From: an uncultured Thermoplasmatales archaeon
GTDB lineage: Archaea > Thermoplasmatota > E2 > DHVEG-1
Length of the DNA: 64,000 nt
Assembly (NCBI GenBank): GCA_964467345.1
Contig: CAYXPY010000004.1
Location: 17,358-81,357 of the forward strand
Reading direction: 5' to 3'
Shown here: positions 616-51,477 of the stretch, piece after piece
Layout of the letters: each line of letters opens with the position of its first letter
Position numbering within the stretch: the first letter of the stretch is position 1
Program-made: the position numbers and the translations under genes
The notes under the pieces: generated by a model
What the model was told of the DNA's origin: nothing
The model's database searches: none
Seen by the model: the letters and a program-made list of their open reading frames with translations, nothing else

Positions 616-628
616 AAAAGGAAAAACT

Positions 629-2145: not shown

Positions 2146-2622
2146 TTATTCTCCAGATAGGACCTTTTGAATTTCTTTATTTAACGATTTTTTAATAATC
2201 GGCAGTCGCTTCTTTAGTTGCGCAGACAAACCAATCCCAAAGGAGAGATCATATGGTTGAACACCAAACACATACAGTCTCCGGGGAAGTTCATTAAGCT
2301 GCTTTGAAAATGCAAGGACATTTATGAAATCTGATTCATGCGTTGATAACTGAATAGGTGTTTTTTTTTGTTGAATCTCTGCAAGGGTAAACAATCGATT
2401 TTCACCAGGTTTACCTTTGAAATCCACTGCGTCCACAAGGATAACAACATCAAAATGGGAAAGAAGATGAAGCAGATTCATCCCCCCTGTGCCTGCATCA
2501 ATCAAATCCGCATCTTTGTAGGATAAATTTTTCTGTTTCTGCAAAAAACCAAGTAATTCGATTCCTATGCCATCATCACGGCGGAGGGGATTACCCAACC
2601 CAATGATCCCAATACGGCTCAT
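2146..2622 (-). CDS. [NiFe]-hydrogenase maturation endopeptidase (HycI/HoxW/FrhD family)
   Basis: 'IGIIGLGNPLRRDDGIGIELL' matches the GxGNxxxxDDGxG signature. The product is 158 aa and the gene lies immediately downstream of the large subunit. Confidence 0.85.
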   Translation of the reverse strand: MSRIGIIGLGNPLRRDDGIGIELLGFLQKQKNLSYKDADLIDAGTGGMNLLHLLSHFDVVILVDAVDFKGKPGENRLFTLAEIQQKKTPIQLSTHESDFINVLAFSKQLNELPRRLYVFGVQPYDLSFGIGLSAQLKKRLPIIKKSLNKEIQKVLSGE

Positions 2623-2634
2623 ACGGAAGATAAA

Positions 2635-3936: not shown

Positions 3937-4693
3937 CGTAACTACACTCCTTTCTTCCGTAATTATACATCGTACAACGCCGTCGAATATCCTCATAAGA
4001 AAGATTATAACGCTCAAGGACCTCTTTGACACATTCAGTCTCTGCTTTTTTAATAAGACCTCGACATCCTTCACAGGGACTGTTATGAGTCGGACAGATG
4101 GCCTTACACCCAGCCCTTGTGATTGGCCCAAGACAAAAATTACCTAGTTCAAATTGACAGATGTTTTCGTTCTTCTTACATTCAACACACACAGGATAGC
4201 GAGGGATTTCAGGTTTTTTTCCAAGGGCTATCGCAGTGATGACTGATTTAAACTCATCCCGGTCAATTGGACAGCCATGAATGTAATAGTCAACGGGCAC
4301 GACCTCGTTGAGCGCCTTGGTTTGGAAGACATCAAACAGCTTGTTTCCCTTGAGGTTTGCATCACCATAGACTTCTTTCTTTACTTCCTCAGGCATCCAT
4401 TGGTTCCGTATCTTGTTCACACCACCAATCGTCGCACATGCCCCAAGGGCGATGAGGATCTTTGCATGAGTCCGTATCTTCCGTAAACGCTCCTCATCTA
4501 TTGGCCTCATGATTGAGCCTTCGACGATAGCTATGTCGTACTCATCAGAATGTTCCTTCATCACCTCTCGGAATGAGACAACATCAACAAAGGAGATAAG
4601 GTCAAGGATCTCCTCTTCGAGGTTGGCGATCTGCAATTCGCAACCCTCACAGTCAGCAAAATCAAAGACCGCGACCCGTGGTTTTGCCTTCAT
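3929..4693 (-). CDS. [NiFe]-hydrogenase small subunit, group 3 (delta/MvhG-like)
   Basis: 'VAVFDFADCEGCELQ' is the proximal-cluster motif, and the C-terminal half is Cys-rich. It overlaps both flanking genes by 4-8 nt. Confidence 0.85.
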   Translation of the reverse strand: MKAKPRVAVFDFADCEGCELQIANLEEEILDLISFVDVVSFREVMKEHSDEYDIAIVEGSIMRPIDEERLRKIRTHAKILIALGACATIGGVNKIRNQWMPEEVKKEVYGDANLKGNKLFDVFQTKALNEVVPVDYYIHGCPIDRDEFKSVITAIALGKKPEIPRYPVCVECKKNENICQFELGNFCLGPITRAGCKAICPTHNSPCEGCRGLIKKAETECVKEVLERYNLSYEDIRRRCTMYNYGRKECSYDE

Positions 4694-8095: not shown

Positions 8096-8221
8096 AATAA
8101 GTTCCCACGTTGGGGATATGATATTTTGCTATATTAATTCGCATGATTCGTATTGTTGGAAAAAATGAAAAATTATTGATAGTTTTAAATATGATAGGTG
8201 GATAAACCTTCTGCAGAGAAG

Positions 8222-8238
8222 TCGGAAAAGTATATATA
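8222..8238 (+). promoter_or_regulatory. BRE/TATA candidate for the hdr operon
   Basis: 'cggaaaag-tatatatag' lies about 40 nt upstream of the hdrC ATG, in the 180-nt divergent intergenic region shared with the malic enzyme gene. Confidence 0.4.
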
Positions 8239-8276
8239 GTTAACAATTGTTAATTAATGAATAGAGAGAGTCTAAA

Positions 8277-8804
8277 ATGAGCATTATCGACTTGACTTCT
8301 ATGGGGGAGCCGCAGTCGGATCAACGAAAAGAACTCAACGACCGACTCAAAAAACTCCAAGACGAAATATCAGACTATTGTTTCCAATGCGGTAGATGCA
8401 CCTCTGGCTGCGAAGCACATAAACTCCTAGAGCTAGAACCACATAAAATCATCGCATTATTAAAACGAGGATTACTCAACGAACTTGTCAACTCCGATGT
8501 CATCTGGACCTGCATGAGCTGTATGAAATGCAGGGAACGCTGCCCCCAACGCGTCGCCCCTGTTGAGGTTTTATTTGCTTTAAAGAACATGGCTGTCGCA
8601 AGCGGCAAACAAATCCCGGGGAAATATACCAGTATGCTGCAGTCAATCCTCTCGATGGGACTTATCCAGGACATCCAGCAAACCACAACCCGTGGTAATA
8701 CAACAGTGAAACGAGACGAGCTTGGACTCCCTTCGCTTTCCAAACCAGTTGATGTTGCCAAGTTTCAAGCAGGGATCATGAAAATCGCGATGGAAAAGGT
8801 ATAA
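8277..8804 (+). CDS. hdrC: heterodisulfide reductase subunit C-like (2x[4Fe-4S])
   Basis: 'CFQCGRCTSGC' and 'CMSCMKCRERCP' give two 4Fe-4S motifs. Confidence 0.8.
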   Translation: MSIIDLTSMGEPQSDQRKELNDRLKKLQDEISDYCFQCGRCTSGCEAHKLLELEPHKIIALLKRGLLNELVNSDVIWTCMSCMKCRERCPQRVAPVEVLFALKNMAVASGKQIPGKYTSMLQSILSMGLIQDIQQTTTRGNTTVKRDELGLPSLSKPVDVAKFQAGIMKIAMEKV

Positions 8805-8809
8805 GGACG

Positions 8810-9688
8810 ATGAAAAAGAAATACGCTCTGTATCCTGGTTGTTTAATGCCAACAGAACAATACGCCTACGAGCTTTCAATCAGAGAAACTCTACCGATAC
8901 TCGGTATTGACCTCGTCGACGTAGAAGGCTTTTCCTGTTGTGGAGAACCAATGAAAAGCGTGAATCAATTCCTCACCTTGTATCTCTCCACACGCAATCT
9001 TGCGATAGCCGAGAAGCATCATCTTGACCTGTTCGTCCCATGTGCAATGTGTCATCTGGCACTTTCCGAATGTCACCATGTTCTAGAGAAGAACCCAGCA
9101 ATGAAAGAACGAATCAACAGCCACCTCGCTGCCGAGGACCTACAATACACCGGGAAAAGCAAGATTGTTCACACCATCGATTTATTATATGATCAAATCG
9201 GGATTGAAAAGATAAAGGAGCATGTCAAAAAACCACTCACCGGTCTGAAAATAGCGGCTCATTATGGGTGTCACCTGATCCGTCCCAGTGAGATCGGTCG
9301 TCCGGATGACTCAGAAAATCCACAGAAAATAGAATCGATCCTCAAAGCCATCGGTGCCGAACCAGTCAACTACCCTCAGAAACTTGATTGTTGCGGTGCG
9401 CCATTACTTGCCAATCTCCCAGAGTCCGCGCTGACAAAAACAGGTCAGAAGCTCCAGGCAATACAAGAACAAGGAATCCAAGCATTGGTGGATGTCTGTC
9501 CTTGGTGCCATAAGATGTTCGACAGCAGACAAACCAAAGCAGCAGAGACCGTCGCAACAAAACTTGATGTCCCGGTATTCTACCTTACTCAATTACTTGG
9601 AATGGCCTTTGGACTATCTGCTGAAAAACTCGGCTTAGCACTCAACCTCAGCCCTGTCGAAAAACTCCAGCAGGAGGCTGCGACGTAA
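8810..9688 (+). CDS. hdrB: heterodisulfide reductase subunit B-like (two CCG domains)
   Basis: 'SCCGEP' and 'DCCGAP' are the two CCG motifs. Its stop overlaps the hdrA ATG (taATG). Confidence 0.85.
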   Translation: MKKKYALYPGCLMPTEQYAYELSIRETLPILGIDLVDVEGFSCCGEPMKSVNQFLTLYLSTRNLAIAEKHHLDLFVPCAMCHLALSECHHVLEKNPAMKERINSHLAAEDLQYTGKSKIVHTIDLLYDQIGIEKIKEHVKKPLTGLKIAAHYGCHLIRPSEIGRPDDSENPQKIESILKAIGAEPVNYPQKLDCCGAPLLANLPESALTKTGQKLQAIQEQGIQALVDVCPWCHKMFDSRQTKAAETVATKLDVPVFYLTQLLGMAFGLSAEKLGLALNLSPVEKLQQEAAT

Positions 9689-11646
9689 TGCGCCGCATCG
9701 GTGTTTTTGTCTGCCATTGCGGGATAAACATCGCACAGAACGTTGATGTCAAAGCACTCACCCAGTACGCAAGTAAACTTAACGGTGTCGTCGTCGCAAA
9801 AGAATACAAATATATGTGCTCAGACGTCGGAGCAACCTTAATTAAGGACACCATCAAAGAGTTCAAACTCGACGGCGTTGTCATCGCATCCTGTTCACCA
9901 CGGATGCACGAACACACCTTCAGACGGGTCGCAAGCGATGGCGGGGTGAACCCGTACCGAGTCGAAATATCCAATATACGCGAACAATGCTCCTGGGCGC
10001 ATACAGACAAAGAACAAGCCACAGAAAAGGCAAAATACTTGGTTCGCAGCGCAGTGTCAAAAGCACGTTCCCTTGAACCCCTGAAACCATCCAAATTCAA
10101 GGTAATACCAGAGGCCCTTGTGATCGGAGCTGGTATCGCAGGGATCCAAGCCTCCCTTGACCTGGCAAATGACGGTTTTAAGGTCCATCTGGTAGAACGA
10201 GACCCAAGCATCGGTGGCCATATGGCGCAGCTTGACAAGACCTTTCCGACACTGGATTGTTCCTCCTGCATCCTCACCCCTAAGATGATGGAAGTAGCAA
10301 ACCATGAGAACATCGAACTGTTCAGTTACTCAGAGGTCGCTAGCGTCGATGGCAGCATCGGGAATTACACCGTGAAAATAAAAAAGAAGCCACGTTACAT
10401 TGATGTTGACAAATGTACAGGATGTGGCGATTGCGCTACCGCTTGTCGCCTCAAAGACAGAATCACCAGTGAATTCAACCAAGGAATGGGAAAACGGGGC
10501 GCTTCCTACATGCCGTTCCCACAGGCAGTACCTCTCAAATACGTCATCGATGACAAAAAATGCCTATTCCTGACTAAAGGGAAATGCGGTGATGAACCGC
10601 TCTGCAAGAAAGCCTGTGCTCAAGACGCCATAGATTTTGATCAGAAGGAAGAAATCGTCGAACGCAAGGTCGGTGCCATCATCGTTGCCACCGGCTATGA
10701 CCTCATGGACCCTGCATCGGTGTACGAATATGGGTACGACCAGTCCCCTGATGTGATCACCACCTTAGAAATGGAACGATTGATCAGCTCCTCAGGACCA
10801 ACCAAAGGAGAGATCCTGCGTCCTTCCAATCAACAGAAACCAAAAAGCATCACCTTCATCCTCTGCGTCGGCTCCCGAGACGAGACCCAATGCACCTGGT
10901 GCTGCCGCATCGGATGTATGACTGCATTAAAACAAGTCTACCTCCTCAGAGAAAAACTCGGAGAGGACGTCGAAATCAACCTCTGCTACCACGACCTGCG
11001 CTCATATGGGAAAGGCTATGAGGAATTCTACCGCAAAGTACGAGGCCTTCACACGAACCTGTTCCGTGGTCGCCCTTCCGAAGTACGCACGATGGCAGAT
11101 ACACTAAAGATGGATATTTTTGATACGACCACAAACAAACTATTTGAAATAAAAACAGACATGGTGGTCCTTGTCCCTGCGATGAAGCCACGAAACGATG
11201 CCACTGAGTTTTCACGTCTCCTTCATCTAACATTAAGTGGTGATGGATTCTTCCTAGAGGCCCATCCCAAACTCCGCCCAGTTGATACATTCGTCAACGG
11301 CATCTTCATCGCTGGATGTTGCCAAGCACCAAAAGACATCCAGGACACCGTATCCCAAGCAAGTGCTGCAGCATCAAGAGCCGCAACCATCCTCTCACAG
11401 GATGAACTGGAGATAGACCCACTTGTTGCGATGGTCGATGAGGACGCCTGCACCGGGTGTGGGATCTGCATCGAAGTCTGCCCCTATGAAGCACGGACAC
11501 TGAATGAACGGAAAAGGATCGCAGAGGTCAACGAGGCGTTATGCGCAGGTTGCGGGGGATGCATCGCTGCTTGCCCAAGCAACGCGTCCATCCATAAGAA
11601 TTTCACAAAAAAACAACTGCTCGACATGGTTGACGACATCATGTAA
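9688..11646 (+). CDS. hdrA: heterodisulfide reductase subunit A, canonical (652 aa)
   Basis: It has the N-domain 'RIGVFVCHCGINI' and the FAD motif 'ALVIGAGIAGIQASLDLANDGFKVHLVE..GGHMAQLDKTFPTLDCSSCIL'. Inserted and C-terminal ferredoxin motifs 'CTGCGDCATAC' and 'CTGCGICIEVCP..CAGCGGCIAACP' follow. Confidence 0.9.
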   Translation: MRRIGVFVCHCGINIAQNVDVKALTQYASKLNGVVVAKEYKYMCSDVGATLIKDTIKEFKLDGVVIASCSPRMHEHTFRRVASDGGVNPYRVEISNIREQCSWAHTDKEQATEKAKYLVRSAVSKARSLEPLKPSKFKVIPEALVIGAGIAGIQASLDLANDGFKVHLVERDPSIGGHMAQLDKTFPTLDCSSCILTPKMMEVANHENIELFSYSEVASVDGSIGNYTVKIKKKPRYIDVDKCTGCGDCATACRLKDRITSEFNQGMGKRGASYMPFPQAVPLKYVIDDKKCLFLTKGKCGDEPLCKKACAQDAIDFDQKEEIVERKVGAIIVATGYDLMDPASVYEYGYDQSPDVITTLEMERLISSSGPTKGEILRPSNQQKPKSITFILCVGSRDETQCTWCCRIGCMTALKQVYLLREKLGEDVEINLCYHDLRSYGKGYEEFYRKVRGLHTNLFRGRPSEVRTMADTLKMDIFDTTTNKLFEIKTDMVVLVPAMKPRNDATEFSRLLHLTLSGDGFFLEAHPKLRPVDTFVNGIFIAGCCQAPKDIQDTVSQASAAASRAATILSQDELEIDPLVAMVDEDACTGCGICIEVCPYEARTLNERKRIAEVNEALCAGCGGCIAACPSNASIHKNFTKKQLLDMVDDIM

Positions 11647-11657
11647 GTGTAACGATT

Positions 11658-14600
11658 ATGACAAAAGAAAAAAAACAAAAGATCACTGCTGCACATAAAC
11701 AGGGCTCAGTCCTTGTCATCGGTGGTGGTATCTCAGGGATTCAATCATCGCTTGACTTAGCGGATGCAGGATTCAAAGTCTATCTTGTCGACCGTGGTCT
11801 TTCCATCGGCGGGACCATGACACAACTAGACAAAACATTTCCGACAAACGATTGTGCCATGTGCATCCTTGCACCAAAACTCGTCTACACAGGACGACAC
11901 GAGAATATAAACATCATCACAAACGCTGAGGTCACCGATGTCGCCGGAGAGGTTGGGAACTTCCAGGTCACCCTTAAGAAACACCCCCGTTACGTCGATC
12001 TCACAAAATGCAACGGATGCGGTGATTGCGTGGAACACTGTCCGGTTTCTATGCGATCTGAATTCGATGAGGGACTTGCGACACATAAAGCAATCTATCA
12101 ACCGTTCCCACAAGCGATTCCAAATGTCTTCGCTATAAGAAAAAACGAAGGTACCTCCCCCTGTAGAATCTCCTGCCCAGCAGGATTGAACGCCCATGGG
12201 TTCGTCGCCTTAGCAGCTCAAGAGAAATTCGCAGAAGCCTTTGAGCTTATCAAAGAAACCATCCCCTTCCCAGGATCATTGGGCCGTATATGCTATCATC
12301 CCTGTGAAACAGATTGCAACAGGAAAGACATCGATGAACCCGTCTCCATTTGTCGCATCAGACGATTCATTGCCGATTACATCTATGACCATCCAGAAGC
12401 TCTTGCCGAGTATAAGAAAATACAAGCAGAAAAACAACAAAACATAGAAATCAACAAGACAAAGAAAGGAAACAACCAAAAAGTCGCAATCATCGGAGCA
12501 GGACCTACTGGAATAACCGCTGCATACGACCTTTCTCGTAAGGGGTATAAACCAGTAGTTTTCGAAGCAGAGAAATTCAGCGGAGGCATGCTGCATTACG
12601 GGGTACCTGACTACCGACTCCCAAAAGAGTATCTCCATAAAGAACTCGATCCTCTCTGCGAACAAGAACAAATCGAACTGAAGAACAACCAGAAGCTCGG
12701 GAGAGATTTCACGCTGGCAGACCTCAAGAAACAAGGGTTCAAAGCCATCCTTGTCGCGATCGGTGCTCATAAGACACGGGCAGCAGGGATTGAATGCTGT
12801 ACTGGAACAGATACCTGCATCTTAGAAGGTGTCGAGTATCTCAAGCAGCTCAATAGGAACATGATCGCAGCGGAATATTTCAAGGGAAAAACCATCTTGG
12901 TTATCGGCGGTGGAAACGTCGCGATGGATTCCGCACGTACCGCACGGCGTCTCGGGGGAAACGTGACTGTCTTGTATCGAAGATCTCTGAAAGAGATGCC
13001 AGCGCACAAAGAGGAGATTCAACAAGCAGAAGAGGAAGGCATCACCTTTAGCTTTTTGACCGCCCCGACGAAACTGCATAAAAACGAGAAACACACCTGT
13101 CTCCAATGCGTGAAAATGCAGCTAGGGGAACCAGATGCATCAGGGAGACGACGACCGATCATTGTGCCTAATTCCGAATATGACGTCCCCTGTGACTATG
13201 TTATCTTTGCAATAGGCCAAGAACTGGATATACAATTGATGGAAGAAAACAACATCGCTCTTTCGCCCTCAGGTTTTATCCAGGTGGACTCTATCACGTT
13301 ACAAACACCCCAAGAGGGGGTTTTTGCCGGCGGTGATGCAGTCTCCGGTCCTGCGTCTGCTGTCGAGGCGATTGCCGCAGGTCATCGTGTGGCAGAATCA
13401 ATCGATCGATTCCTCAACAATGAAGATCTAATAAAAGGAAGAGAAACCACAGAGCCAGTAAAAGCACAGATCCCAAAGGAAACCCTCAGAATCCCACAAG
13501 AGCGGGAACAGCCACCGTTACTGCCCCTTGATGAACGAGTAATGACATTCACTGAAGTCGACCAAGGTTTCACCAAAGAACAGGTTGTCCGTGAGGCACA
13601 ACGGTGCCTGAATTGCGCAGGATGCTGTGATTGCCAACAATGTGTCCTTTACTGTGGACCTCACGCTATTGACCATCAGATGAAGGAAACAACGCAGACT
13701 ATTGATGTCGGAGCTGTTATCGTCTCACCAGGTTTTGCGGAGTACACCCCACCAAAAGCAGATAGTTACGGATATCAAGTCTATCCGAATGTACTGACCA
13801 GCATCGAATTCGAACGGATGCTCTCTGCATCAGGACCATATAAAGGCCATATCAAACGGATCTCTGATGGGAAGCCATTGAAAAAAATCGCATGGCTCCA
13901 ATGCATCGGTTCACGTGACGAAAGCTGCGATCGGAAATACTGCTCCTCGGTGTGTTGCATGTACGCAACCAAGGAAGCAGTCATCGCAAAGGAGCACGAA
14001 CCCGGGGTGGATACACATATCTATTATATGGATATGCGGTCGTTCGGTAAGGATTTTGATAAGTATTTTGAACGAGCGCAAAACGAGTATGGCGTCGTCT
14101 ATAGACGATGCCGTATCGCAAAGATAGAACAGGACCGGAAAACAAAACAGCTCACAATCCGCTCTGTTGATGAGAAAGGCGCCTTACAAAACGAGATATA
14201 CGACATGGTAGTACTTTCCGTAGGGTTACAACCCTGCGCAACCCTTGGCCATCTCAGCAAAGCATTGGAGATTAATTTAAATGAATACGGGTTCGTCGAG
14301 ACAGACACATTCACCCCAGTCTCCACCTCACGTGAAGGCATCTATGCCTCAGGAACGGTCACAGAACCAAAGGACATCCCTGAGAGCGTGACCCAGGCGT
14401 CTGCAGCCGCCGCAGAAGCGGCAAGGACTATCGCAGAGGTGAGAGGAACCGAGGTCGCTGAGAAGACATACCCAGTGGAACGGGATATAAAAACAGAGGT
14501 TCCCCGGATAGGTGTATTCGTCTGCCATTGTGGGATCAATATCGCTGGCATCGTTGATGTGAAAAAAGTTGTTGAAGTCTCAAAGACACTCCCCTACGTC

Positions 14601-16175
14601 GTCTACTCAGATGATACCTTATTTACCTGCTCACAGGATTCACAGGAAAAAATAAAAGAGAAGATAAAGGCTTTAAATCTCAACCGGGTTGTCATCGCTT
14701 CATGCACCCCCCGGACACATGAGCCATTATTCCAAGATACGCTTCGACAGGCTGGGTTAAACCCCCATCTGTTTGAAATGGCAAACCTTCGTGACCAGAA
14801 CTCCTGGGTCCATAAAAGTGATTCTAGCAGTGCCACGGAAAAAGCTATCGATTCGGTGAAAATGGCAGTTGCGAAATCCTCCGATTTATACCCCGTGCGT
14901 CATCTGCAGATCCCGGTCATTTCCAGCGCTCTTGTGATTGGTGGCGGTATCGCAGGGATGACTGCCGCACTCTCCATTGCAGATCAAGGGTACCAGGTCT
15001 ACCTCGTCGAAAGGGAACCAGACCTTGGGGGTCATCTCAAGGAAATCTACCTTGGGGTACAGGGGGAGAAACCACAGGACCTCTTGAAACAGACTATTGA
15101 ACAAGTCACCAGTCATCCTTTGATACAGGTATTCACCCAGACGACCGTCGGGCAGATCTCCGGATACGTCGGGAACTTCTCCACAACAGTGCAGAAGGAT
15201 AAAAAGGAGAAGACACCAACCGTGATTCAACATGGTGTCATCATCGTCGCAACCGGTGGAGTCCCATACGAACCCAAGGAATATCAATACAAGAAACACG
15301 ATGATGTGCTGACCCAGACACAGTTCGAAAAAGACCTCTTTGATGAAAAAAAATATCTCAAGGACCTAAAGGAGGTCGTGATGATCCAATGTGTCGGATC
15401 ACGAAACGAAGACCAGCCGTATTGCAGCAGGGTGTGTTGCTCTGAGGCGTTGAAGAATGCCTTGCGGTTCAAGGAGCAGAATTCCGATGCAACAGTCTAT
15501 GTCCTGTATCGTGATATCAGGACCTATGGATTCAGGGAGGATGTCCTCTACCAAAAGGCCCGAAAGAAAGGGATTCTTTTCATACGATATGATGAAAAAG
15601 ATGAACCAAAAGTAACCATCGATGATGGAAAACTGCTGGTAAGAACAAAGGACCCCATCCTGCAACGAGAACTCCGTTTACACCCGGATAAATTGATATT
15701 AAGCACTGGCGTTATCCCACAGGACAATAAACCACTCGCACAACTGCTCAAAGTCCCCTTAAACGAAGATGGGTTTTATGCCGAAGCGCATGTGAAGCTT
15801 CGCCCGATTGATTTTTCTGCAGACGGTATTTTCCTCTGCGGTCTTGCCCATTCACCTCGGTTCATCGAAGAATCAATCGTACAGGCAAAGGCCACAAGCG
15901 CCAGGGCGGCAACAATCCTTTCAAAAAAATATCTTGAAACAATCGGCAACATCGCAAGGGTAGTTTCGCGGAATTGCGCTGGATGCCAACTGTGTATCGA
16001 GGCATGTCCCTATGATGCGATTAGCTACGACGAAGAAAAGAAAATCGTAATCGTCAATGAAATCCTCTGTCAGGGCTGTGGTGCCTGCTCCGTGGTCTGT
16101 CCAAGTGGCACGTCACAACAGAACACGTTTACGAAACGTCAGATTATCTCTATGATTGATGCATGTTTGGAGTAA
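11658..16175 (+). CDS. 1505-aa HdrA-like flavoprotein: HdrA FAD domain interrupted by a GltD/NfnB-like NAD(P)H module, followed by a second complete HdrA unit
   Basis: aa 1-160 carry 'VLVIGGGISGIQSSLDLADAGFKVYLVD..QLDKTFPTNDCAMCIL' and 'CNGCGDCVEHCP'. aa ~170-600 carry 'CRISCPAG..ICYHPCETDC', 'KVAIIGAGPTGITAAYDL', 'ILVIGGGNVAMDSARTA' and 'VFAGGDAVSGPASAVEAIAAG' (GltD/NfnB/SudA-like). The HdrA domain then continues through 'CLNCAGCCDCQQCVLYCGP..'. aa ~1050-1505 form a second unit with 'RIGVFVCHCGINIAG', 'ALVIGGGIAGMTAALSIADQGYQVYLVE' and C-terminal 2x4Fe-4S motifs. Confidence 0.8.
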   Translation: MTKEKKQKITAAHKQGSVLVIGGGISGIQSSLDLADAGFKVYLVDRGLSIGGTMTQLDKTFPTNDCAMCILAPKLVYTGRHENINIITNAEVTDVAGEVGNFQVTLKKHPRYVDLTKCNGCGDCVEHCPVSMRSEFDEGLATHKAIYQPFPQAIPNVFAIRKNEGTSPCRISCPAGLNAHGFVALAAQEKFAEAFELIKETIPFPGSLGRICYHPCETDCNRKDIDEPVSICRIRRFIADYIYDHPEALAEYKKIQAEKQQNIEINKTKKGNNQKVAIIGAGPTGITAAYDLSRKGYKPVVFEAEKFSGGMLHYGVPDYRLPKEYLHKELDPLCEQEQIELKNNQKLGRDFTLADLKKQGFKAILVAIGAHKTRAAGIECCTGTDTCILEGVEYLKQLNRNMIAAEYFKGKTILVIGGGNVAMDSARTARRLGGNVTVLYRRSLKEMPAHKEEIQQAEEEGITFSFLTAPTKLHKNEKHTCLQCVKMQLGEPDASGRRRPIIVPNSEYDVPCDYVIFAIGQELDIQLMEENNIALSPSGFIQVDSITLQTPQEGVFAGGDAVSGPASAVEAIAAGHRVAESIDRFLNNEDLIKGRETTEPVKAQIPKETLRIPQEREQPPLLPLDERVMTFTEVDQGFTKEQVVREAQRCLNCAGCCDCQQCVLYCGPHAIDHQMKETTQTIDVGAVIVSPGFAEYTPPKADSYGYQVYPNVLTSIEFERMLSASGPYKGHIKRISDGKPLKKIAWLQCIGSRDESCDRKYCSSVCCMYATKEAVIAKEHEPGVDTHIYYMDMRSFGKDFDKYFERAQNEYGVVYRRCRIAKIEQDRKTKQLTIRSVDEKGALQNEIYDMVVLSVGLQPCATLGHLSKALEINLNEYGFVETDTFTPVSTSREGIYASGTVTEPKDIPESVTQASAAAAEAARTIAEVRGTEVAEKTYPVERDIKTEVPRIGVFVCHCGINIAGIVDVKKVVEVSKTLPYVVYSDDTLFTCSQDSQEKIKEKIKALNLNRVVIASCTPRTHEPLFQDTLRQAGLNPHLFEMANLRDQNSWVHKSDSSSATEKAIDSVKMAVAKSSDLYPVRHLQIPVISSALVIGGGIAGMTAALSIADQGYQVYLVEREPDLGGHLKEIYLGVQGEKPQDLLKQTIEQVTSHPLIQVFTQTTVGQISGYVGNFSTTVQKDKKEKTPTVIQHGVIIVATGGVPYEPKEYQYKKHDDVLTQTQFEKDLFDEKKYLKDLKEVVMIQCVGSRNEDQPYCSRVCCSEALKNALRFKEQNSDATVYVLYRDIRTYGFREDVLYQKARKKGILFIRYDEKDEPKVTIDDGKLLVRTKDPILQRELRLHPDKLILSTGVIPQDNKPLAQLLKVPLNEDGFYAEAHVKLRPIDFSADGIFLCGLAHSPRFIEESIVQAKATSARAATILSKKYLETIGNIARVVSRNCAGCQLCIEACPYDAISYDEEKKIVIVNEILCQGCGACSVVCPSGTSQQNTFTKRQIISMIDACLE

Positions 16176-16181
16176 GAGAAA

Positions 16182-16631
16182 ATGAATGAAGAAAAAAAGG
16201 ACCATACGAAGGAAACCTTTGAACCAAAGATCGTCGGGTTCCTCTGCAACTGGTGTAGTTACGCAGGCGCTGACCTTGCAGGCACCAGCCGTATTCAATA
16301 CCCGCCGAACGTACGAATCATCCGAGTCATGTGCTCAGGGTCTGTTGATTCTATGTATATCCTCCGAGCGTTGCTAGAAGGGGCTGATGGTGTGTTTGTC
16401 GGGGGATGCCACCCGGGTGATTGTCATTACATCGATGGGAACTACAAAGCGCGACGACGCATGGTCCTCCTTCAAAATATCCTTGATACCCTGGGTCTTG
16501 AGAAGGAGCGAGTCTGGTTACGATGGATCTCTGCTTCAGAGGGGCAGAAGTTCGCTGATACGATGAAAGAGATGACTGAGGCGATCCGAAAACTAGGCCC
16601 CAATCCAATCGCAAAACACTGGAATCTGTAA
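16182..16631 (+). CDS. mvhD: MvhD-like 2Fe-2S electron-transfer subunit
   Basis: '[18 protein letters not shown]', 'MCSGSVD' and '[10 protein letters not shown]' are present. The product is 149 aa. Confidence 0.85.
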
Positions 16632-16647
16632 TGGAGGATGAAGAAAC

Positions 16648-17769
16648 ATGACACAAAAAGTGTTGAAAATAAAGGACAATGACATGGAAGAATCAATCAA
16701 TGATTTCCTACGTCTTCTACTGTCATCAGGGAAAATACAAGCCTTGCTGGTTCCACAGAGTACTCCTTCAAAGAAAATTGCATTCCCTGTCCTGCTCTCA
16801 GACCCAAAGAAACTCCATGCTGATGTTATCGCCCCGGTTCTCCCAACTGCTACCGCTGCAATCATATCGAAGATGACCAAGGTGCAGCCCCCCTCACAAC
16901 CAATTGGTGTTGTGATGCGAGCTTGTCAAATACGCGCTCTTATTGAACTAGTCAAACTGAACCAGGCGAACCTTACCAATATTATCATTATTGGAATAGA
17001 CTGCCCAGGGACATTTCCCATCAACACCTATTCATCGTTCCCTGAAAAGCATACCCCAACACAGTTCCTTCTCGAATCATTAAAAAAGAACTCTGACGAC
17101 TCAGAGAAATATCTCCGCTCCGCCTGCAAAATCTGCAAAGACCCAATCCCGACACACGCAGATATCATCGTTGGGTTCTACGGCGTTGACCTTGAAAAGG
17201 AACTCTTCATAGAGGCTGCCTCAGAGGCGGGTAAAAACATCCTGCAAGGGATACCTCTTGAGGAGTATAAAGAAGGGAAAGTCAGGGAAAAAGCAGTCAA
17301 GCAGGTACGTGAGGAAAAAACACAGAAACGGGCTGCGTTCCTCAAAGAGAAAGAAGGATTGAAAGGCATCAAGAAGATTGCTGAGTTTTTCGACACCTGT
17401 GTCAATTGCCATAATTGTCGACAGGCTTGTCCCATCTGCTATTGTAAAGAATGTTTGTTCGACTCTTCAGTGTTTGACGCTGAAGCCTATAAGTTCGTCC
17501 GTAAAGCAGAGGTGAAAGGCTTGTTTAAAATGCCGACCGATGCATTGCTCTTCCAGCTTGGACGGATGAACCATATGATTCTTTCCTGCGTGGAGTGTGG
17601 ATTATGCGAACAAGCCTGTCCCAACGAAATCCCCCTCATGGATGTGTTTATCCCGGTTGCAGAGAACGCTCAGAAGGAGTTCGACTACGCCCCCGGTAAA
17701 GATGAAAAAGAGAAAATCCCGATGATCGTCTACCGAGAAAATGAGTTCTTGGAGGTAGGAGAAAAATAG
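16648..17769 (+). CDS. HydB/AsrA-like iron-sulfur protein (sulfhydrogenase-beta-like), without FAD/NAD module
   Basis: 'CVNCHNCRQACPICYCKEC' and 'CVECGLCEQACP' repeat the Cys spacing seen in the N-terminal half of the 4690..6633 product within this same window. Confidence 0.5.
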   Translation: MTQKVLKIKDNDMEESINDFLRLLLSSGKIQALLVPQSTPSKKIAFPVLLSDPKKLHADVIAPVLPTATAAIISKMTKVQPPSQPIGVVMRACQIRALIELVKLNQANLTNIIIIGIDCPGTFPINTYSSFPEKHTPTQFLLESLKKNSDDSEKYLRSACKICKDPIPTHADIIVGFYGVDLEKELFIEAASEAGKNILQGIPLEEYKEGKVREKAVKQVREEKTQKRAAFLKEKEGLKGIKKIAEFFDTCVNCHNCRQACPICYCKECLFDSSVFDAEAYKFVRKAEVKGLFKMPTDALLFQLGRMNHMILSCVECGLCEQACPNEIPLMDVFIPVAENAQKEFDYAPGKDEKEKIPMIVYRENEFLEVGEK

Positions 17770-17770
17770 C

Positions 17771-18439
17771 ATGGATGTCATTGACTCCCGCAAGGTTGAT
17801 CCCCAGTTCAAGTTTCAAATAGCAAACGAACACGGTGGCGAAGGCATCCTGAAATGCTTCGCCTGCGGTGCCTGCACAGCACGATGCCCTGAGATGGATG
17901 TCAAACCTGAATGGAACGCCCGTGTCATCATCCGGAAAGCCTTGCTTGGTTTGAAAGAAGAAGTCTTAAGCAGTGAGTTTGTGTGGATATGCAGTGCGCA
18001 TTACCGCTGCCTGGAAAAATGCCCTCAAAAAGTAAACGTCAAGGAAGTCATGAACGCTGTACGGGACGCCCGTCTAATCGAAGAGCAAACCGAGGATGTC
18101 ACCGGAAAGAAATCGAAAAAATACCTTGATTTAGGGTTCAAATACAAAATATCTGAAACAGAAGCAGGAAAAGGCCTTTATGAATGTTTCTCCTGTGGGA
18201 CCTGTACGGCAGGGTGTCCAGAACGAGAGCTTGACCCGCTGTACTCCCCGCGGAAAGTGATAAAGAATGTGCTTCTTGGGATGAAGGAACCGGTCTACTC
18301 AAACAAGTTTGTTGAGATCTGTTCCTCACATCATCGGTGTCTCACCCAATGCCCGCAAGGGGTGGAGATCCCAAAGCTCATGAATGCGATTCAGAACATT
18401 GCGATAAAAGAAGGATATCATCGAACAAAAAAAGAGTAA
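17771..18439 (+). CDS. tandem-duplicated HdrC-like ferredoxin
   Basis: Two ~100-aa repeats each carry a full motif ('CFACGACTARCPE' / 'CFSCGTCTAGCPE') and a second motif ('WICSAHYRCLEKCPQKV' / 'EICSSHHRCLTQCPQGV'). Confidence 0.6.
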   Translation: MDVIDSRKVDPQFKFQIANEHGGEGILKCFACGACTARCPEMDVKPEWNARVIIRKALLGLKEEVLSSEFVWICSAHYRCLEKCPQKVNVKEVMNAVRDARLIEEQTEDVTGKKSKKYLDLGFKYKISETEAGKGLYECFSCGTCTAGCPERELDPLYSPRKVIKNVLLGMKEPVYSNKFVEICSSHHRCLTQCPQGVEIPKLMNAIQNIAIKEGYHRTKKE

Positions 18440-18445
18440 GTCACT

Positions 18446-21400
18446 ATGACGAAAAAAAAGGAAGGTATCGGAGCAGTCGCTGTAATCGGTGGTGGCATCG
18501 CCGGTGTTCAGGCTGCTCTTGACCTCGCGGACATGGGATACAAAGTCTATGTCCTTGAGAAATCACCGACCATCGGTGGCGTGATGGCTCAGCTTGACAA
18601 GACGTTCCCAACAAATGATTGTTCCATGTGCATCCTGTCCCCAAAGCTTGTGGACTGCGCACGTCATCAGAATATAGAGATTCTTACGAATGCATACGTC
18701 GAGGGTGTCGAGGGGACCGCAGGAAATTTTACCGTCAAGGTTCTGAAAAAACCCAGATACATCGACATAGAGAAATGCACCTCGTGTGGGAGCTGTGAGG
18801 ACGTCTGCCCAGTTTCCCTTCCAAATGCATTTGAATACGGGTTGGTGAAACGCAAGGCAATCTACAAACCGTTTCCACAGGCAATCCCCAATGCCTATGT
18901 CATCGACAAGGAAGGCGACGGGAAGCATCGCGGCTGTGTCGATTGTATGCGCTGTGTCAAAGAATGTAAGTCTGGTGCAATTAACCATGACCAAAAACCA
19001 GAGCACGTGCGCTTTCAGGTCGGTGCGGTCATCATCGCTGCAGGTTCACCTCCCTTTGACCCGGTGATAAAACCGGAGTTCGGGTACAAGAAATTTAAAA
19101 ATGTGCTTACTAGCGTTGAGTTCGAACGAGTCCTGTCTGCCTCCGGACCCACACAGGGCAAGATCCTCCGACCAAGTGACCAGAAACACCCGATACGCGT
19201 CGCCTGGGTTCATTGTGTCGGATCCCGTGATGCATCAGTCGGTCATGAATACTGCTCCGCGATGTGCTGTATGTACACCGCAAAGGAAGCAATCATCGCC
19301 AAAGAGCATGCATATGATATCGAGCCGACCGTGTTCTATATAGATATCCGTTCCTATGGCAAGGATTTTGACAAATACATAGAGCGGGCGAAAAAAGACC
19401 ATGGACTCCGCTACGTCCGATCCAGGATCTCAGAGATAACTGAGGATCCAAAAACAAAAGACTTAATCATAAAATATGAGGATGATGCAGGGAACTTCAA
19501 AGAGGAGACATACAACCTTGTGGTCCTATCAGTAGGATTATGTGGTGCTGGTGAACGTCGTAACGAGCTACTGGACATCCTTGGTTTTGATGCTAATGAA
19601 TTTTTGTTTGTCCGAACAAGCCCCGAGGATCCTGTCGTAATCAAACCAGGGATTTTCGTGGCCGGTTCTTTCCTGGAGCCACAGGCAATCCCGGAGTCAG
19701 TGATGCAAGCTTCTGCTGCGGCTGCCAATGCAGCAGCTTTGCTTAAGGACTCACGAGGGACACTTGTTAAAGAAAAGGTGTACCCCGTGGAAAAGAACGT
19801 ATCAGCCGAGAAACCCAGAATAGGCGTATTCCTTTGTAACTGCGGCATTAACATAGGTGGGTACGTCGACGTAACCGCGGTCGCTGAGTATGTGAAATCA
19901 TTACCCGATGTCGCATTCGTCGAGACGAACGTCTACACCTGCTCAGAAGATACACAGAAGAAAATCGTTGACGCGATACAGAAACATGATCTGAACCGCA
20001 TCTTGGTTGCCGCCTGCACTCCCCGGACACATGAACCTTTGTTTCAGAAAAGTCTCCGGGACGCGGGTCTGAACCCCTATTTACTTGAGATGACGAACAT
20101 CCGGGAGCAATGCTCATGGGTTCATATGGATGAACCCGCCAAAGCTACCGAGAAGGCAAAACAACTGATCGCGATGACCGTTGCCAAGACCCGGTTTTTA
20201 CAGCCCATTCAGGAAGCAGAGATCCCAGTGATCCAAAAAGCACTTGTGATCGGCGGGGGTATCGCCGGGATGACTGCAGCCTTATCTCTTGCGGAGCAGG
20301 GATATGAGACGGTCCTAGTGGAAAAAGAACCAAGACTGGGTGGGTACCTCCATAAGGTGTACTACACCGTTGATGGTATGGACATCCCACGACTGCTCAA
20401 AGACACGACCGGGAAGGTCATGAGCCATCCGCTCATCAAGGTGCATCTCAGCTCACAGGTCAAATCGTTAAAAGGCTATGTCGGGAGTTATGACTCAACC
20501 ATCCAGACCCCGACAGACGAGGTATCGTTTTCCCATGGCGTCATCATCGTTGCCCTTGGTGCTGATGAATACAAACCACACACCTATCATTATAACAAGG
20601 ACCCGCGGGTATTAACCCAGTCAGAGCTAGAAAAAGACCTCAGTGTCCTAAAAAAAGAGGACATCCGGGATGGCGAGACGTTCGTCATGATCCAGTGCGT
20701 GGAGTGTCGTGATGAGAAACGACCATACTGCAGTAGAATCTGCTGTATGCAGGCAGTGAAAAACGCACTGAAAATCAAGGAGTTAAATCCACGTGCCGAG
20801 GTATTTGTCTTATACCGGGATCTGATGACCTACGGTTTTAAAGAAAAGTTTTACAAGGATGCCCGTGAGAAGGGTGTCATGTTTCTCCAGTACGACCCGG
20901 AGAAGAAACCAGAGCTTGAGGCAAAGAACGGTCTTGTGGTAAAGGTCCATGAACCGATGCTTGGAGAGCTGTTGAAGATTCCTACAGACCATCTCATCCT
21001 TTCAACAGGGTTACAACCGAACCCTGATAACCCGGTTATCGGAAAACTATTGAAGGTCCCTGTAAACGATGATGGGTTCTTCCTTGAGGCCCATGTCAAG
21101 CTCCGTCCGGTTGATTTTTCAACCCGTGGGGTGTTTGTCGCCGGGAACTGCCATGTCCCTAAGTTTATCAGCGAGTCCATTTATCAGGCGCAGGCTGCTG
21201 CTGCGCGTGCCGCGACAATCCTGTGCAAACCAACGCTGAAAGCAGAGCCAAATGTCGCCTGTGTTGACGATGATCTCTGCAGTGGCTGTGGTATCTGTAT
21301 CTCTGTTTGTCCCTATAACGCCATCGAACGGGTCGAGGAAGAAATCGATGGTAAAAAAATGATTCATGCGAGGATAAATGAGGGGCTCTGCCAGGGATGC

Positions 21401-21499
21401 GGCACATGCGTGAGTGCATGCCCCAGCAGCGCGATTCAGCAGCGGGGGTTCAAAGACGCACAACTTCTTCCGATGATTGATCAAATAACATCAGAATAA
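18446..21499 (+). CDS. 1017-aa double HdrA-like flavoprotein (N-domain-less HdrA unit + complete HdrA unit)
   Basis: Unit 1 has 'VAVIGGGIAGVQAALDLADMGYKVYVLE..QLDKTFPTNDCSMCIL' and 'CTSCGSCEDVCP'. Unit 2 begins with 'RIGVFLCNCGINIGG' and has 'ALVIGGGIAGMTAALSLAEQGYETVLVE' and C-terminal 'CSGCGICISVCP..CQGCGTCVSACP'. Confidence 0.8.
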   Translation: MTKKKEGIGAVAVIGGGIAGVQAALDLADMGYKVYVLEKSPTIGGVMAQLDKTFPTNDCSMCILSPKLVDCARHQNIEILTNAYVEGVEGTAGNFTVKVLKKPRYIDIEKCTSCGSCEDVCPVSLPNAFEYGLVKRKAIYKPFPQAIPNAYVIDKEGDGKHRGCVDCMRCVKECKSGAINHDQKPEHVRFQVGAVIIAAGSPPFDPVIKPEFGYKKFKNVLTSVEFERVLSASGPTQGKILRPSDQKHPIRVAWVHCVGSRDASVGHEYCSAMCCMYTAKEAIIAKEHAYDIEPTVFYIDIRSYGKDFDKYIERAKKDHGLRYVRSRISEITEDPKTKDLIIKYEDDAGNFKEETYNLVVLSVGLCGAGERRNELLDILGFDANEFLFVRTSPEDPVVIKPGIFVAGSFLEPQAIPESVMQASAAAANAAALLKDSRGTLVKEKVYPVEKNVSAEKPRIGVFLCNCGINIGGYVDVTAVAEYVKSLPDVAFVETNVYTCSEDTQKKIVDAIQKHDLNRILVAACTPRTHEPLFQKSLRDAGLNPYLLEMTNIREQCSWVHMDEPAKATEKAKQLIAMTVAKTRFLQPIQEAEIPVIQKALVIGGGIAGMTAALSLAEQGYETVLVEKEPRLGGYLHKVYYTVDGMDIPRLLKDTTGKVMSHPLIKVHLSSQVKSLKGYVGSYDSTIQTPTDEVSFSHGVIIVALGADEYKPHTYHYNKDPRVLTQSELEKDLSVLKKEDIRDGETFVMIQCVECRDEKRPYCSRICCMQAVKNALKIKELNPRAEVFVLYRDLMTYGFKEKFYKDAREKGVMFLQYDPEKKPELEAKNGLVVKVHEPMLGELLKIPTDHLILSTGLQPNPDNPVIGKLLKVPVNDDGFFLEAHVKLRPVDFSTRGVFVAGNCHVPKFISESIYQAQAAAARAATILCKPTLKAEPNVACVDDDLCSGCGICISVCPYNAIERVEEEIDGKKMIHARINEGLCQGCGTCVSACPSSAIQQRGFKDAQLLPMIDQITSE

Positions 21500-21526: not shown

Positions 21527-21925
21527 ATGAATATGGAGATTTCATTTCCAGGCGGGAAGAAAGTGGATGCAACCTATGAGGGTTTTCGTGTGCAGACGGA
21601 CCAGCCAGTCGTTGAGGGCGGATCAGGGTTTGCCCCGTCGCCCTTTGATTTGTTCCTTGTTTCGATTGGCACGTGCACTGGTTTTTATGTACTTAGTTTC
21701 TGCCAGAGGAACAACATTCCCACGGACTCTCTACGGCTGAGTGTAAGTTTTCAGAGGAATCCGGAGACGCATCTCATCGAAAACGTGCATATCGACATTC
21801 ATGTCCCAAAGGAGTTTCCTGAGAAATACAAAAACGCGGTGGTGAAAGCAGCCGGGCTTTGTACTGTAAAACGGAATCTGAAGAATCCACCGGAGATTGA
21901 GATTCAACTCATCACTAGTTCGTAG
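21527..21925 (+). CDS. OsmC/Ohr-family protein
   Basis: It is 132 aa and contains 'EGGSGFAPSPFDLFLVSIGTCTG', the OsmC Cys pattern. Confidence 0.7.
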   Translation: MNMEISFPGGKKVDATYEGFRVQTDQPVVEGGSGFAPSPFDLFLVSIGTCTGFYVLSFCQRNNIPTDSLRLSVSFQRNPETHLIENVHIDIHVPKEFPEKYKNAVVKAAGLCTVKRNLKNPPEIEIQLITSS

Positions 21926-51410: not shown

Positions 51411-51477
51411 TTACCGGTTAAATTCTAAATAGGAGATAATAATTACTCATGTAAGAGCCTACAATTTCAGATGGTTT

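Follow-up and report, generated by a model that had tools for sequence, protein, structure and literature searches.

A Thermoplasmata hdr operon combining three types of HdrA with a single HdrB and a predicted NAD(P)H module

Electron bifurcation by HdrA is understood only for the methanogen HdrABC complex fed by a hydrogenase or a formate dehydrogenase. Input modules dock on the N- and C-terminal domains of HdrA through MvhD/VhuD, the high-potential branch runs from flavin adenine dinucleotide (FAD) to HdrC and on to HdrB, and HdrA's inserted ferredoxin domain lies on the low-potential branch (PMC13518236). Here we analyse an hdr operon of eight genes on a 64,000-nucleotide stretch of contig CAYXPY010000004.1 (positions 17,358 to 81,357, referred to as the window) from an uncultured Thermoplasmatales archaeon (assembly GCA_964467345.1), in which a type I, a type III/II and a type II HdrA are encoded together with a single HdrC and HdrB. 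Compared with the MvhAGD–HdrABC and Fdh–MvhD–HdrABC complexes (5ODC, 7BKB, 8RVU, 9T1S), hdrC, hdrB, hdrA and mvhD of the window are clear homologues and an FdhB-like protein resembles the FdhB that feeds MvhD. However, the operon lacks MvhA/G and FdhA, it has two extra fused HdrAs and a putative NADPH module, and CoM-S-S-CoB is not expected as its substrate.

By gene content the operon is like HdrABC/HdrL of Syntrophobacter fumaroxidans (Sfum_0819-0824) and HdrL of Desulfobacterium autotrophicum: there, too, hdrABC and a large fusion of HdrA with GltD, then mvhD and an FdhB-like gene, occur without a catalytic hydrogenase. The name HdrL goes back to Strittmatter et al. 2009 (PMC2702500). Under sulfate, S. 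fumaroxidans expresses this set of hdrABC, an FdhB-like FeS protein, MvhD and HdrL (PMC5947623), and HdrABC/HdrL has been proposed to be an NAD(P)H-linked bifurcating or confurcating complex (PMC2702500, PMC5947623). It is a precedent for the first six genes of the window operon, and the same cassette is found in many bacterial loci. The window operon differs in being archaeal, in adding a tandem HdrC-like protein with predicted histidine ligands and a second fused HdrA, and in having no DsrC or sulfate-reduction context within the window, while many bacterial HdrL versions add HydB/HydG-like (Flx-like) subunits that are missing from it.

Fused HdrAs are also known from anaerobic methanotrophic archaea (ANME) and other methane-metabolising archaea. 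HdrA3/4 begins with the unit that bears the N-terminal domain (PMC9012536), whereas both fused HdrAs of the window begin with the unit that bears Cys197. Type III HdrA of ANME (HdrA9-11, A9-TRX-C) carries, like HdrL of the window, an NfnB-like insertion of ∼480-500 residues in the inserted ferredoxin domain, and the ANME type II and III proteins share with both fused HdrAs a second TrxR domain with a C-terminal ferredoxin domain, a complementary distribution of Cys197 and the N-terminal domain, and retention of K409 and E356. In methane-metabolising archaea type III is rare (9 sequences) and has been taken to be recent. The family found here, by contrast, has many members and extends over many phyla and, unlike ANME, the host is not a known methane metaboliser. 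The co-occurrence of all three HdrA types sets the window operon apart from the ANME HdrAs.

All along the HdrL insert there is homology to NfnB/NfnI-L and to the GltD-like NADPH domain present in NfnA and StnC, components of the NfnAB/NfnSL and Bfu-type NfnABC/StnABC transhydrogenases. Unlike these enzymes the operon has no NfnA/NfnS-type small subunit (no NfnA-like open reading frame (ORF) was found in it with Pfam and NCBIfam), the window has no NuoF-type subunit, and the module is built into an HdrA as an internal domain. In the NADH-dependent FlxABCD–HdrABC of Desulfovibrio, the HdrABC core is fed by a pyridine-nucleotide module through the MvhD-like FlxD. The window operon shares this concept of a pyridine-nucleotide-fed HdrABC without having a FlxA-type (NAD_binding_1/2Fe-2S) or FlxB-type (Fer4_22) gene, the NAD(P)H site being predicted inside an HdrA instead. 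None of the eight proteins matches Pfam NAD_binding_1, DHODB_Fe-S_bind or Fer4_22, which are present only in a hydrogenase beta-gamma gene at 4690-6633.

All of the building blocks have thus been described bioinformatically: HdrL in 2009, HdrABC/HdrL by proteomics in 2018, the ANME HdrA paralogues in 2022 and the type I-III classes in 2025. Searches of the literature for this very operon in Thermoplasmatota turned up only generic mentions of 'MvhADG/HdrABC'. We found no description of a Thermoplasmata operon with type I, III/II and II HdrA beside a single HdrCB, of a tandem HdrC with predicted histidine ligands, or of an exchange between NfnB- and NuoEF-type cassettes.

Composition of the operon

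The eight ORFs lie on the + strand at the coordinates of a first-pass annotation of this DNA and contain no internal stops and no N. From hdrC to the last gene they are separated by 5, −1, 11, 6, 16, 1 and 6 nucleotides, as that annotation had implied in describing tightly packed genes with overlaps and gaps of no more than 20 nucleotides, and between 8277 and 23343 the intergenic stretches of the + strand contain no run of five or more T. This arrangement is compatible with a single transcription unit, which could also take in the next co-directional genes, encoding OsmC (21527-21925) and adenylosuccinate synthase. Domains were called with Pfam and NCBIfam, structural relatives were taken from PDB sequences, and HdrA and the halves of both fused HdrAs, HdrL without its insert, were aligned to the crystal-structure HdrA 5odc_A. 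With ORFs of 0.5-4.5 kb and hidden Markov model E-values down to 1e-290 a chance match is ruled out, and the identities of the eight components are assigned with high confidence.

HdrC matches TIGR03290 with an E-value of 2e-21, under the trusted cut-off. HdrB contains two C-X(n)-CCG-X(n)-CXXC motifs (Cys 11/43/44/78/81 and 154/194/195/230/233) and is close to solved methanogen HdrB (7bkb_B, 9e-56; 5odc_B, 2e-55), its score of 246.8 against TIGR03288 falling under the equivalog cut-off of 345; it provides the operon's sole predicted disulfide-reducing site. HdrA is 52% identical to 5odc_A (E 2e-212) and colinear with it over about residues 3-649, and consists of a cluster domain at the N-terminus, a TrxR-like FAD domain bearing the Cys194/Cys197 motif, an inserted ferredoxin domain and a further ferredoxin domain at the C-terminus, without a fused MvhD.

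The fourth protein is, judging from its sequence, HdrL, a type III HdrA of class A9-TRX-C in the newer scheme. Its unit 1 has an equivalent of Cys197 (C69) and lacks the N-terminal domain, as seen in the alignment to 5odc_A and to HdrA of the window. The inserted ferredoxin domain has two cluster motifs, CNGCGDCVEHCP and CLNCAGCC..C, and the insert lies between them. Within the insert Pfam identifies Pyr_redox_2 (7e-61) and Fer4_20 (1.5e-16, residues 167-243, two [4Fe-4S]), and it contains an FAD site (IIGAGPTG) and a dinucleotide site (VIGGGNVAMD...YRRS..EMPA). Its nearest solved relatives are NfnA of NfnABC (9n5u_A, 4e-97), 9bov_A, StnC (8oh5_C), NfnI-L (5jca_L) and T. maritima NfnB (4ylf_B), for all of which, going by their names, we take the substrate to be NADPH. 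A GGGN(V/T)AMD...YRR(S/T)..EMPA site is common to the insert and all of these relatives, and the motif is invariant across 13 diverse HdrL homologues. We propose that the insert is probably a pyridine-nucleotide port with a preference for NADPH, in line with the role suggested for NfnB inserts elsewhere (PMC9012536, PMC12054007). The remainder of unit 1 retains the equivalents of E356 and K409, matches NF040770 over residues 649-926 and has no C-terminal ferredoxin domain. Unit 2 has neither the Cys197 motif nor the inserted ferredoxin domain; its GxGxxG lies at residue 1095 and Fer4_7 at residues 1439-1484.

The last protein, a type II fused HdrA, has the same architecture. Unit 1 bears a Cys197 equivalent (C62) and lacks both the N-terminal and the C-terminal domain, while unit 2 lacks Cys197 and the inserted ferredoxin domain; in both fused proteins, unit 1 keeps the DKTFPTNDCxxC motif and a complete inserted ferredoxin domain. 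The two proteins are 51% identical in unit 1 and 52% in unit 2, and HdrL minus its insert is 51% identical to the second fused HdrA over 1015 colinear residues. Since units 1 and 2 are only ∼30% identical, the fusion is older than the duplication that gave rise to the two proteins. Cys197 of HdrA is a ligand given to the N-terminal cluster of the partner subunit. Because Cys197 on unit 1 is complementary to the N-terminal domain on unit 2, each fused protein may mimic an asymmetric HdrA homodimer in a single chain. Fused HdrAs have similarly been proposed, from models and alignments, to be their own heterodimeric partners (PMC9012536, PMC12054007).

MvhD starts 6 nucleotides past HdrL and is 92-97% identical to its counterparts in three related contigs (L008, L085 and L086; loci outside the window are given L numbers). 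The sixth protein matches Pfam FrhB_FdhB_C with E-values of 2e-12 to 7e-11, and its best solved relatives are FdhB proteins of Fdh–Hdr complexes (9t1s_M, 4e-35; 8rvu_E; 7bkb_E). Its homologues are annotated as F420-type FdhB. The alignment to FdhB 9t1s_M is colinear but weak over the N-terminal half (27.6 bits), and FrhB_FdhB_N gives no match at E≤10. The two halves of the seventh protein are 43% identical (E 9e-36), and each contains CxxCxxCxxxCP followed by CxxHxxCxxxCP, in which a histidine replaces the second cysteine. This histidine is conserved in all five orthologues examined. An exhaustive phmmer search of 1.84 billion representatives returned only four below 1e-30, so narrow is the family; the histidine motif occurs in 6 of the 150 best matches, compared with two canonical motifs in 111. 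The tandem protein is, on these comparisons of sequence, the most lineage-specific part of the operon.

Altogether the operon encodes five HdrA-type FAD domains, one in HdrA and two in each fused protein. Each contains GxGxxG and the equivalents of E356 and K409, and the four-cysteine cluster of the TrxR domain is kept in all five alignments to 5odc_A. One NfnB-type flavin is added by the HdrL insert, and a further one is possible in the FdhB-like protein. There are four HdrC-type dicluster modules, one in HdrC, two in the tandem protein and one in the C-terminal part of the FdhB-like protein. Much of the first-pass annotation is borne out by these results, namely hdrC, hdrB and a canonical 652-residue hdrA (by Pfam and NCBIfam, CCG motifs and colinearity with 5odc_A), the tandem-duplicated HdrC-like protein, the 1017-residue double HdrA with its two FAD units, a single HdrB, at least five HdrA FAD units and at least three HdrC-type ferredoxin modules; the domain searches, on which it had staked its reading, returned several independent HdrA FAD domains. 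The 1505-residue fusion is likewise real, although its key feature, the GltD/NfnB insert with a sixth flavin site, had merely been implied. Two assignments have to be revised. Instead of two MvhD-type modules a single FlpD domain is detectable, in MvhD itself, and a second MvhD hidden in the N-terminal domains of the three HdrAs was rejected, since no FlpD match appeared there even at E≤10. The supposed HydB/AsrA-like FeS protein has no Fer4_22/AsrA match and proves to be the FdhB/FrhB-like sixth protein.

Table 1. Positions of features of the hdr operon and of its variants at related loci
Feature	Position	Strand	Basis
Putative archaeal promoter region, AT-rich, divergent intergenic, upstream of hdrC	8096-8276	+	sequence inspection, inference only
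TATA-like box TTTTAAATAT	8183-8192	+	sequence inspection
TATA-like box TATATATA	8231-8238	+	sequence inspection
hdrC, 175 residues, motifs CFQCGRCTSGCE and CMSCMKCRERCP (two [4Fe-4S]) and C-terminal extension	8277-8804	+	Pfam Fer4_8/17/9
hdrB, 292 residues, two complete CCG motifs	8810-9688	+	Pfam CCG 3e-24, two stretches
hdrA, canonical type I, 652 residues	9688-11646	+	colinear with 5odc_A
HdrL (1505 residues), unit 1, first part: FAD GxGxxG, DKTFPTNDCAMC motif, first CxxCxxCxxxCP of inserted ferredoxin domain	11658-12146	+	
HdrL insert, GltD/NfnB-like putative NADPH module, residues about 164-645 (∼480 residues)	12147-13592	+	Pfam, NCBIfam PRK12771/gltA
HdrL unit 1, second part: second inserted-ferredoxin cluster motif, rest of TrxR-like FAD domain, four-Cys cluster	13593-14453	+	
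HdrL unit 2: N-terminal cluster domain, second TrxR-like FAD domain, C-terminal 2x[4Fe-4S] ferredoxin domain	14454-16175	+	
mvhD, 149 residues, [2Fe-2S] adaptor	16182-16631	+	Pfam FlpD 4e-58; NF045873 VhuD 2e-45
FdhB/FrhB-like, 373 residues: FrhB_FdhB_C (86-203) and HdrC-like dicluster domain (CVNCHNCRQACP, CVECGLCEQACP)	16648-17769	+	Pfam
Tandem HdrC-like, 222 residues, without CCG domain	17771-18439	+	Pfam Fer4_8/17 twice
Second fused HdrA (1017 residues, type II), unit 1: FAD domain with DKTFPTNDCSMC, complete inserted ferredoxin domain	18446-19810	+	
Second fused HdrA, unit 2: N-terminal cluster domain, second FAD domain, C-terminal ferredoxin domain	19811-21499	+	
NuoEF-type replacement of HdrL in related loci	L008:6627-12748; L088:22173-24545; L089:3699-9535		

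Conservation and exchange of the inserted module

Conservation of the operon extends over seven independent Thermoplasmata contigs. In L008 and L085-L087, seven of its genes are 54-97% identical to those of the window, while for L088 and L089 the match rests on gene order together with Pfam or tblastn. L085 and L086, with HdrL 80% and 76% identical, contain the same eight genes in the same order between unrelated flanks. L087 (HdrL 62% identical) begins inside hdrA and holds the remaining five genes from HdrL to the second fused HdrA, followed at 11640-14946 by a second mvhD, mvhG (Oxidored_q6), mvhA (NiFeSe_Hases/HoxH) and hycI. An Mvh-type hydrogenase is therefore possible in this operon family, though it is missing from the window.

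In L008, a contig of the metagenome-assembled genome (MAG) LFW-68_2 with the same flanks as the window, the other seven genes are 80-96% identical and three ORFs stand at the position of HdrL. The first joins the N-part of HdrA unit 1 to a NuoE-like 2Fe-2S domain (PF01257, 1e-48), the second is NuoF-like (Complex1_51K, SLBB, NADH_4Fe-4S) and the third consists of a Fer2_4 domain, the rest of unit 1, and unit 2. A broken pseudogene was considered for this locus and rejected, the three ORFs really being a NuoE/NuoF-type split variant. The variant recurs after hdrCBA in L088 (hdrCBA 85-92% identical) and in L089, on the 1.82-Mb Thermoplasmatales chromosome CP070712.1 (FdhB-like homologue 62% identical), so that in all three loci a NuoE/NuoF/Fer2_4 module of the NADH type occupies the insertion point of the NfnB-like module. 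The presence of two different pyridine-nucleotide modules at one insertion point argues for an NAD(P)H port there, and is the strongest comparative argument for it. Literature searches gave nothing specific on a NuoEF-inserted HdrA.

HdrL and fused HdrAs yielded at least 600 genomic matches, counted at one genome per species, which span Desulfobacterota, Chloroflexota, Acidobacteriota, Bacillota, Bathyarchaeia and Thermoplasmata; for 80 of them the domains were mapped. One recurring arrangement, seen in Smithella, Clostridiales and Desulfobacterota, has HdrL, mvhD and an FdhB-like gene, sometimes with hdrC-hdrB, followed by HydB-like and HydG-like genes. Among 28 HdrL ORFs of bacterial genomes, mvhD comes after HdrL in 17 and an FdhB-like gene lies downstream in 9. 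Minimal hdrC-hdrB-HdrL clusters recur, as do fused HdrAs placed after HdrC–HdrB fusions with CCG motifs, and fused HdrA-mvhD-mvhG-mvhA is found in Methanomassiliicoccales and Bathyarchaeia. Synteny thus separates three modules, hdrCBA, HdrL-mvhD-fdhB-like and the tandem hdrC with the second fused hdrA, each of which recurs independently elsewhere.

In our ORF calls for Desulfobacterota loci, fused HdrA is split after ∼60 residues at the DKTFPTND-C motif (for example L033:9986-10171, L046:318-509, L049:9986-10168), and MvhD is split into short pieces, such as the fragments of 65-72 residues in L010, L021 and L045. Such splits would be expected from in-frame TGA selenocysteine codons, where the window genes use cysteine; selenoprotein forms of HdrA, HdrL and MvhD have been reported for D. 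autotrophicum (PMC2702500).

Proposed function and alternatives

We propose that the operon encodes a modular, soluble, pyridine-nucleotide-fed flavin bifurcating or confurcating system based on HdrA, a reading for which the chances appear even. Module 1 (hdrC, hdrB and hdrA) would be a complete HdrABC core with the sole thiol/disulfide site. Module 2 would be the set of HdrL, MvhD and FdhB-like protein, in which unit 1 of HdrL supplies Cys197 and the inserted ferredoxin domain, and module 3 would combine the second fused HdrA with the tandem HdrC-like protein as a CCG-free, His-ligated wire. NADPH would be oxidised, or NADP+ reduced, at the HdrL insert, and electrons would pass from its two [4Fe-4S] clusters to the inserted-ferredoxin clusters of unit 1 and on to an HdrA-type FAD. 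At the HdrA-type flavins, electron pairs would then be divided between two branches, or combined from them: one of high potential, leading through HdrC and HdrB to a disulfide, and one of low potential, leading through the C-terminal ferredoxin domains or MvhD to ferredoxin (Fd), with the net reaction 2 NADPH + Fd(ox) + RSSR <-> 2 NADP+ + Fd(red) + 2 RSH. This stoichiometry is thermodynamically balanced, with about −320 mV set against the mean of about −500 and −140 mV (textbook values). Bifurcation to ferredoxin plus a disulfide is a more tentative part of the proposal, and the assembly of all eight proteins into one particle is doubtful. The first-pass annotation had proposed multi-branch bifurcation fed by NAD(P)H rather than directly by H2; the multi-flavin domain content indeed points to NAD(P)H as a direct substrate, but L087 leaves room for a link to hydrogen in the family.

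Several observations weigh against this proposal. Five HdrA-type flavins share one HdrB, and the tandem HdrC-like protein lacks a CCG domain, whereas elsewhere the protein before a fused HdrA is often an HdrC–HdrB fusion with CCG motifs. No DsrC, TusE, GcvH or thioredoxin-type disulfide candidates are found in the 64-kb window. Co-transcription is deduced solely from the gene spacing and the missing T runs. The insert is located on the canonical low-potential exit, and NADPH-fed bifurcation would therefore need the input and output branches to be used differently. GltD inserts have been read as NADH-preferring from a GxGxxG motif (PMC12054007); against this rule the HdrL site has GxGxxA followed by RR, which we read as indicating NADPH. 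In the literature, biochemical data are found neither for HdrL nor for any HdrA of the fused kind.

With a single HdrB set against five HdrA-type flavins, and with a CCG-free tandem protein, modules 2 and 3 may work without a disulfide. It is thus conceivable, if rather unlikely, that the eight genes, though transcribed together, give rise to three enzymes that are physically separate, of which only HdrABC handles a disulfide, while HdrL–MvhD–FdhB-like and the tandem HdrC–fused HdrA are disulfide-independent, for example NADPH:ferredoxin or transhydrogenase-like enzymes. As a precedent, F420H2:ferredoxin activity has reportedly been seen for HdrA2 alone in Methanosarcina acetivorans. Such a separation is favoured by the excess of three hdrA genes over one hdrB, by HdrL-mvhD without detectable hdrB in L005, L012 and L013, by hdrC-hdrB-HdrL standing alone in L004, L019, L020 and L077, and by the fused HdrA-mvhD-mvhGA of the Methanomassiliicoccales loci. 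However, the eight-gene order with its gaps of at most 16 nucleotides is kept down to ∼62% identity, the presence of just one mvhD and one hdrCB points to parts used in common, and in L004, L019 and L020 HdrL pairs directly with HdrCB.

In another reading the system would be hydrogen-linked at its base, with MvhD docking a [NiFe] hydrogenase, either an Mvh encoded elsewhere or the adjacent enzyme of the 3b type, so that NAD(P)H oxidation would be coupled to H2 evolution and disulfide reduction, or the reverse. Such coupling has been hypothesised for type III HdrA with mvhADG (PMC12054007), the L087 operon ends in mvhD-mvhG-mvhA-hycI, fused HdrA-mvhD-mvhG-mvhA occurs in L029, L032, L036, L061, L063, L082 and L084, and a 3b-type hydrogenase adjoins the operon in the window, L008 and L088. 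Nevertheless, this reading is improbable: mvhA and mvhG are not found anywhere in the 64 kb of the window, as had been noted at first for the operon, no hydrogenase lies within 10 kb in L085, L086 or L089, and the adjacent hydrogenase is divergent, with an NAD(P)-binding beta-gamma fusion of its own and no MvhD-type adaptor.

A cascade version of the proposal is equally hard to credit. Here the eight proteins would form an asymmetric mega-complex in which MvhD, the FdhB-like protein and the tandem HdrC with its histidine ligands connect the three kinds of HdrA, with five HdrA-type flavins and one NfnB-type flavin, in series for two-stage bifurcation. A single HdrB disulfide would drive NADPH electrons to the potential of ferredoxin, and different cassettes could be exchanged at the port, an NfnB-type one serving NADPH and a NuoEF-type one NADH.

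Even less probable is dependence on F420, with F420H2 as mid-potential donor or acceptor at the FdhB/FrhB-like protein and NADPH as second substrate. The protein is colinear with F420-type FdhB (9t1s_M, and the FrhB_FdhB_C match), and an F420 role has been proposed for type II HdrA–FdhB clusters of ANME and methanogens (PMC9012536, PMC12054007). Against it, the FrhB_FdhB_N domain is undetected and the N-terminal half a weak match, neither fdhA nor F420-related genes are found in the 64-kb window, and the same FdhB-like gene follows HdrL-mvhD in loci of Smithella, Clostridiales and Desulfobacterota. To our knowledge F420 is not expected in these bacteria. Finally, the probability that the 1505- and 1017-residue ORFs are assembly or frameshift chimeras is negligible, for although the three-ORF form of L008 looked like a broken gene at first sight, that form is a distinct NuoEF-type variant recurring in L088 and L089, the two proteins are colinear paralogues, the identical 1505-residue protein with the same neighbours is present in contigs of at least three independent sequencing runs, and more than 100 homologue clusters of HdrL are full length. 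Most of the best 120 clusters listed have 1473-1530 residues at 51-90% identity; they belong to Thermoplasmata and also to bacteria, Sumerlaeota and Aerophobetes among them.

Surroundings and significance

A [NiFe] hydrogenase is encoded at 2146-6633 on the − strand of the window, divergent from the operon. Its beta (Fer4_22, AsrA/HydB-like) and gamma (NAD_binding_1 and DHODB_Fe-S_bind) parts are fused in a protein of 647 residues, whereas they are separate genes in L088. Judged from domain content, the layout is consistent with the group 3b assignment made at first. The accompanying idea of an NADPH-centred hub formed with the neighbouring genes is weak: the set of malic enzyme, 3b-type hydrogenase and OsmC is found beside the operon in no locus other than the window and L008, its closest relative, the hydrogenase alone recurring in L088, and malic enzyme and hydrogenase are not conserved around the operon in L085, L086, L087 and L089.

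In both the window and L008 the OsmC gene lies 27 nucleotides downstream of the operon; OsmC also adjoins the minimal hdrC-hdrB-HdrL cluster of L004 (14538-14972). A lipoate-protein ligase gene, with or without GcvH, is found upstream of hdrC-hdrB-HdrL (L004:6469-7894, L088:1-371). The sHdr–LbpA system prompted us to ask whether OsmC, LplA and GcvH point to a substrate of the lipoyl or thiol-peroxidase kind, an idea set aside because they do not occur around the operon in L085, L086, L087 and L089; a thiol or lipoyl link is a loose lead. In L089 the operon runs co-directionally (14851-19699) into genes for a Fer4 protein, a 542-residue FAD_binding_2 flavoprotein and a three-subunit 2-oxoacid:ferredoxin oxidoreductase, which hints at a connection with ferredoxin.

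The window encodes large C25 peptidases and an archaeal rpoB-rpoA'-L30e-NusA layout, judged by ORF sizes, and the closest named genome, the Thermoplasmata MAG LFW-68_2, is described as a proteolytic heterotroph. No mcr, CoM or CoB genes are found in the 64-kb window. The host is probably a non-methanogenic, protein-fermenting Thermoplasmata archaeon. Horizontal transfer of the operon, considered from its GC content of 45-49% against 38% reported for the nearest MAG, was rejected since the rpoB/rpoA region of the window has 46-49%. Three co-directional genes at 37229-40574 encode a flavoprotein with Fer2_4 and Pyr_redox_2 (492 residues), a 2x[4Fe-4S] ferredoxin-like protein (155 residues) and an FAD oxidase of the DAO family (390 residues), a set that presumably resembles archaeal proline or D-amino-acid dehydrogenase complexes; it fits a proteolytic lifestyle as a further source of reducing equivalents.

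Elsewhere in the window, Rfam gives a third transfer RNA (tRNA) at 47622-47710 (89 nucleotides, 51.7 bits) that ARAGORN did not report, and its extra length suggests an intron-containing archaeal tRNA; the Rfam scan found no RNA families other than tRNAs. A region of low GC (49592-58851, 33-37%, compared with 45-49% in the rest) encodes a MazE-like antitoxin and four paralogous NosD/beta-helix proteins, along with several ORFs without Pfam matches, and may be a surface-protein island or acquired DNA. At the edge of the window (16-877) are ThiF-family E1-like and ThiS/MoaD-like genes, a ubiquitin-like sulfur-carrier pair for which no link to the hdr operon was found.

If the ordinary reading is true, a MAG has yielded yet another Hdr-like cluster that is uncharacterised. 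The operon is well suited to structural and biochemical study rather than being a categorical surprise. The family nevertheless provides two natural experiments, the exchange of NfnB- and NuoEF-type modules at one point and the presence of mvhDGA in one relative only, and the operon bears on the balance of NAD(P)H and ferredoxin in abundant sediment and groundwater Thermoplasmata.

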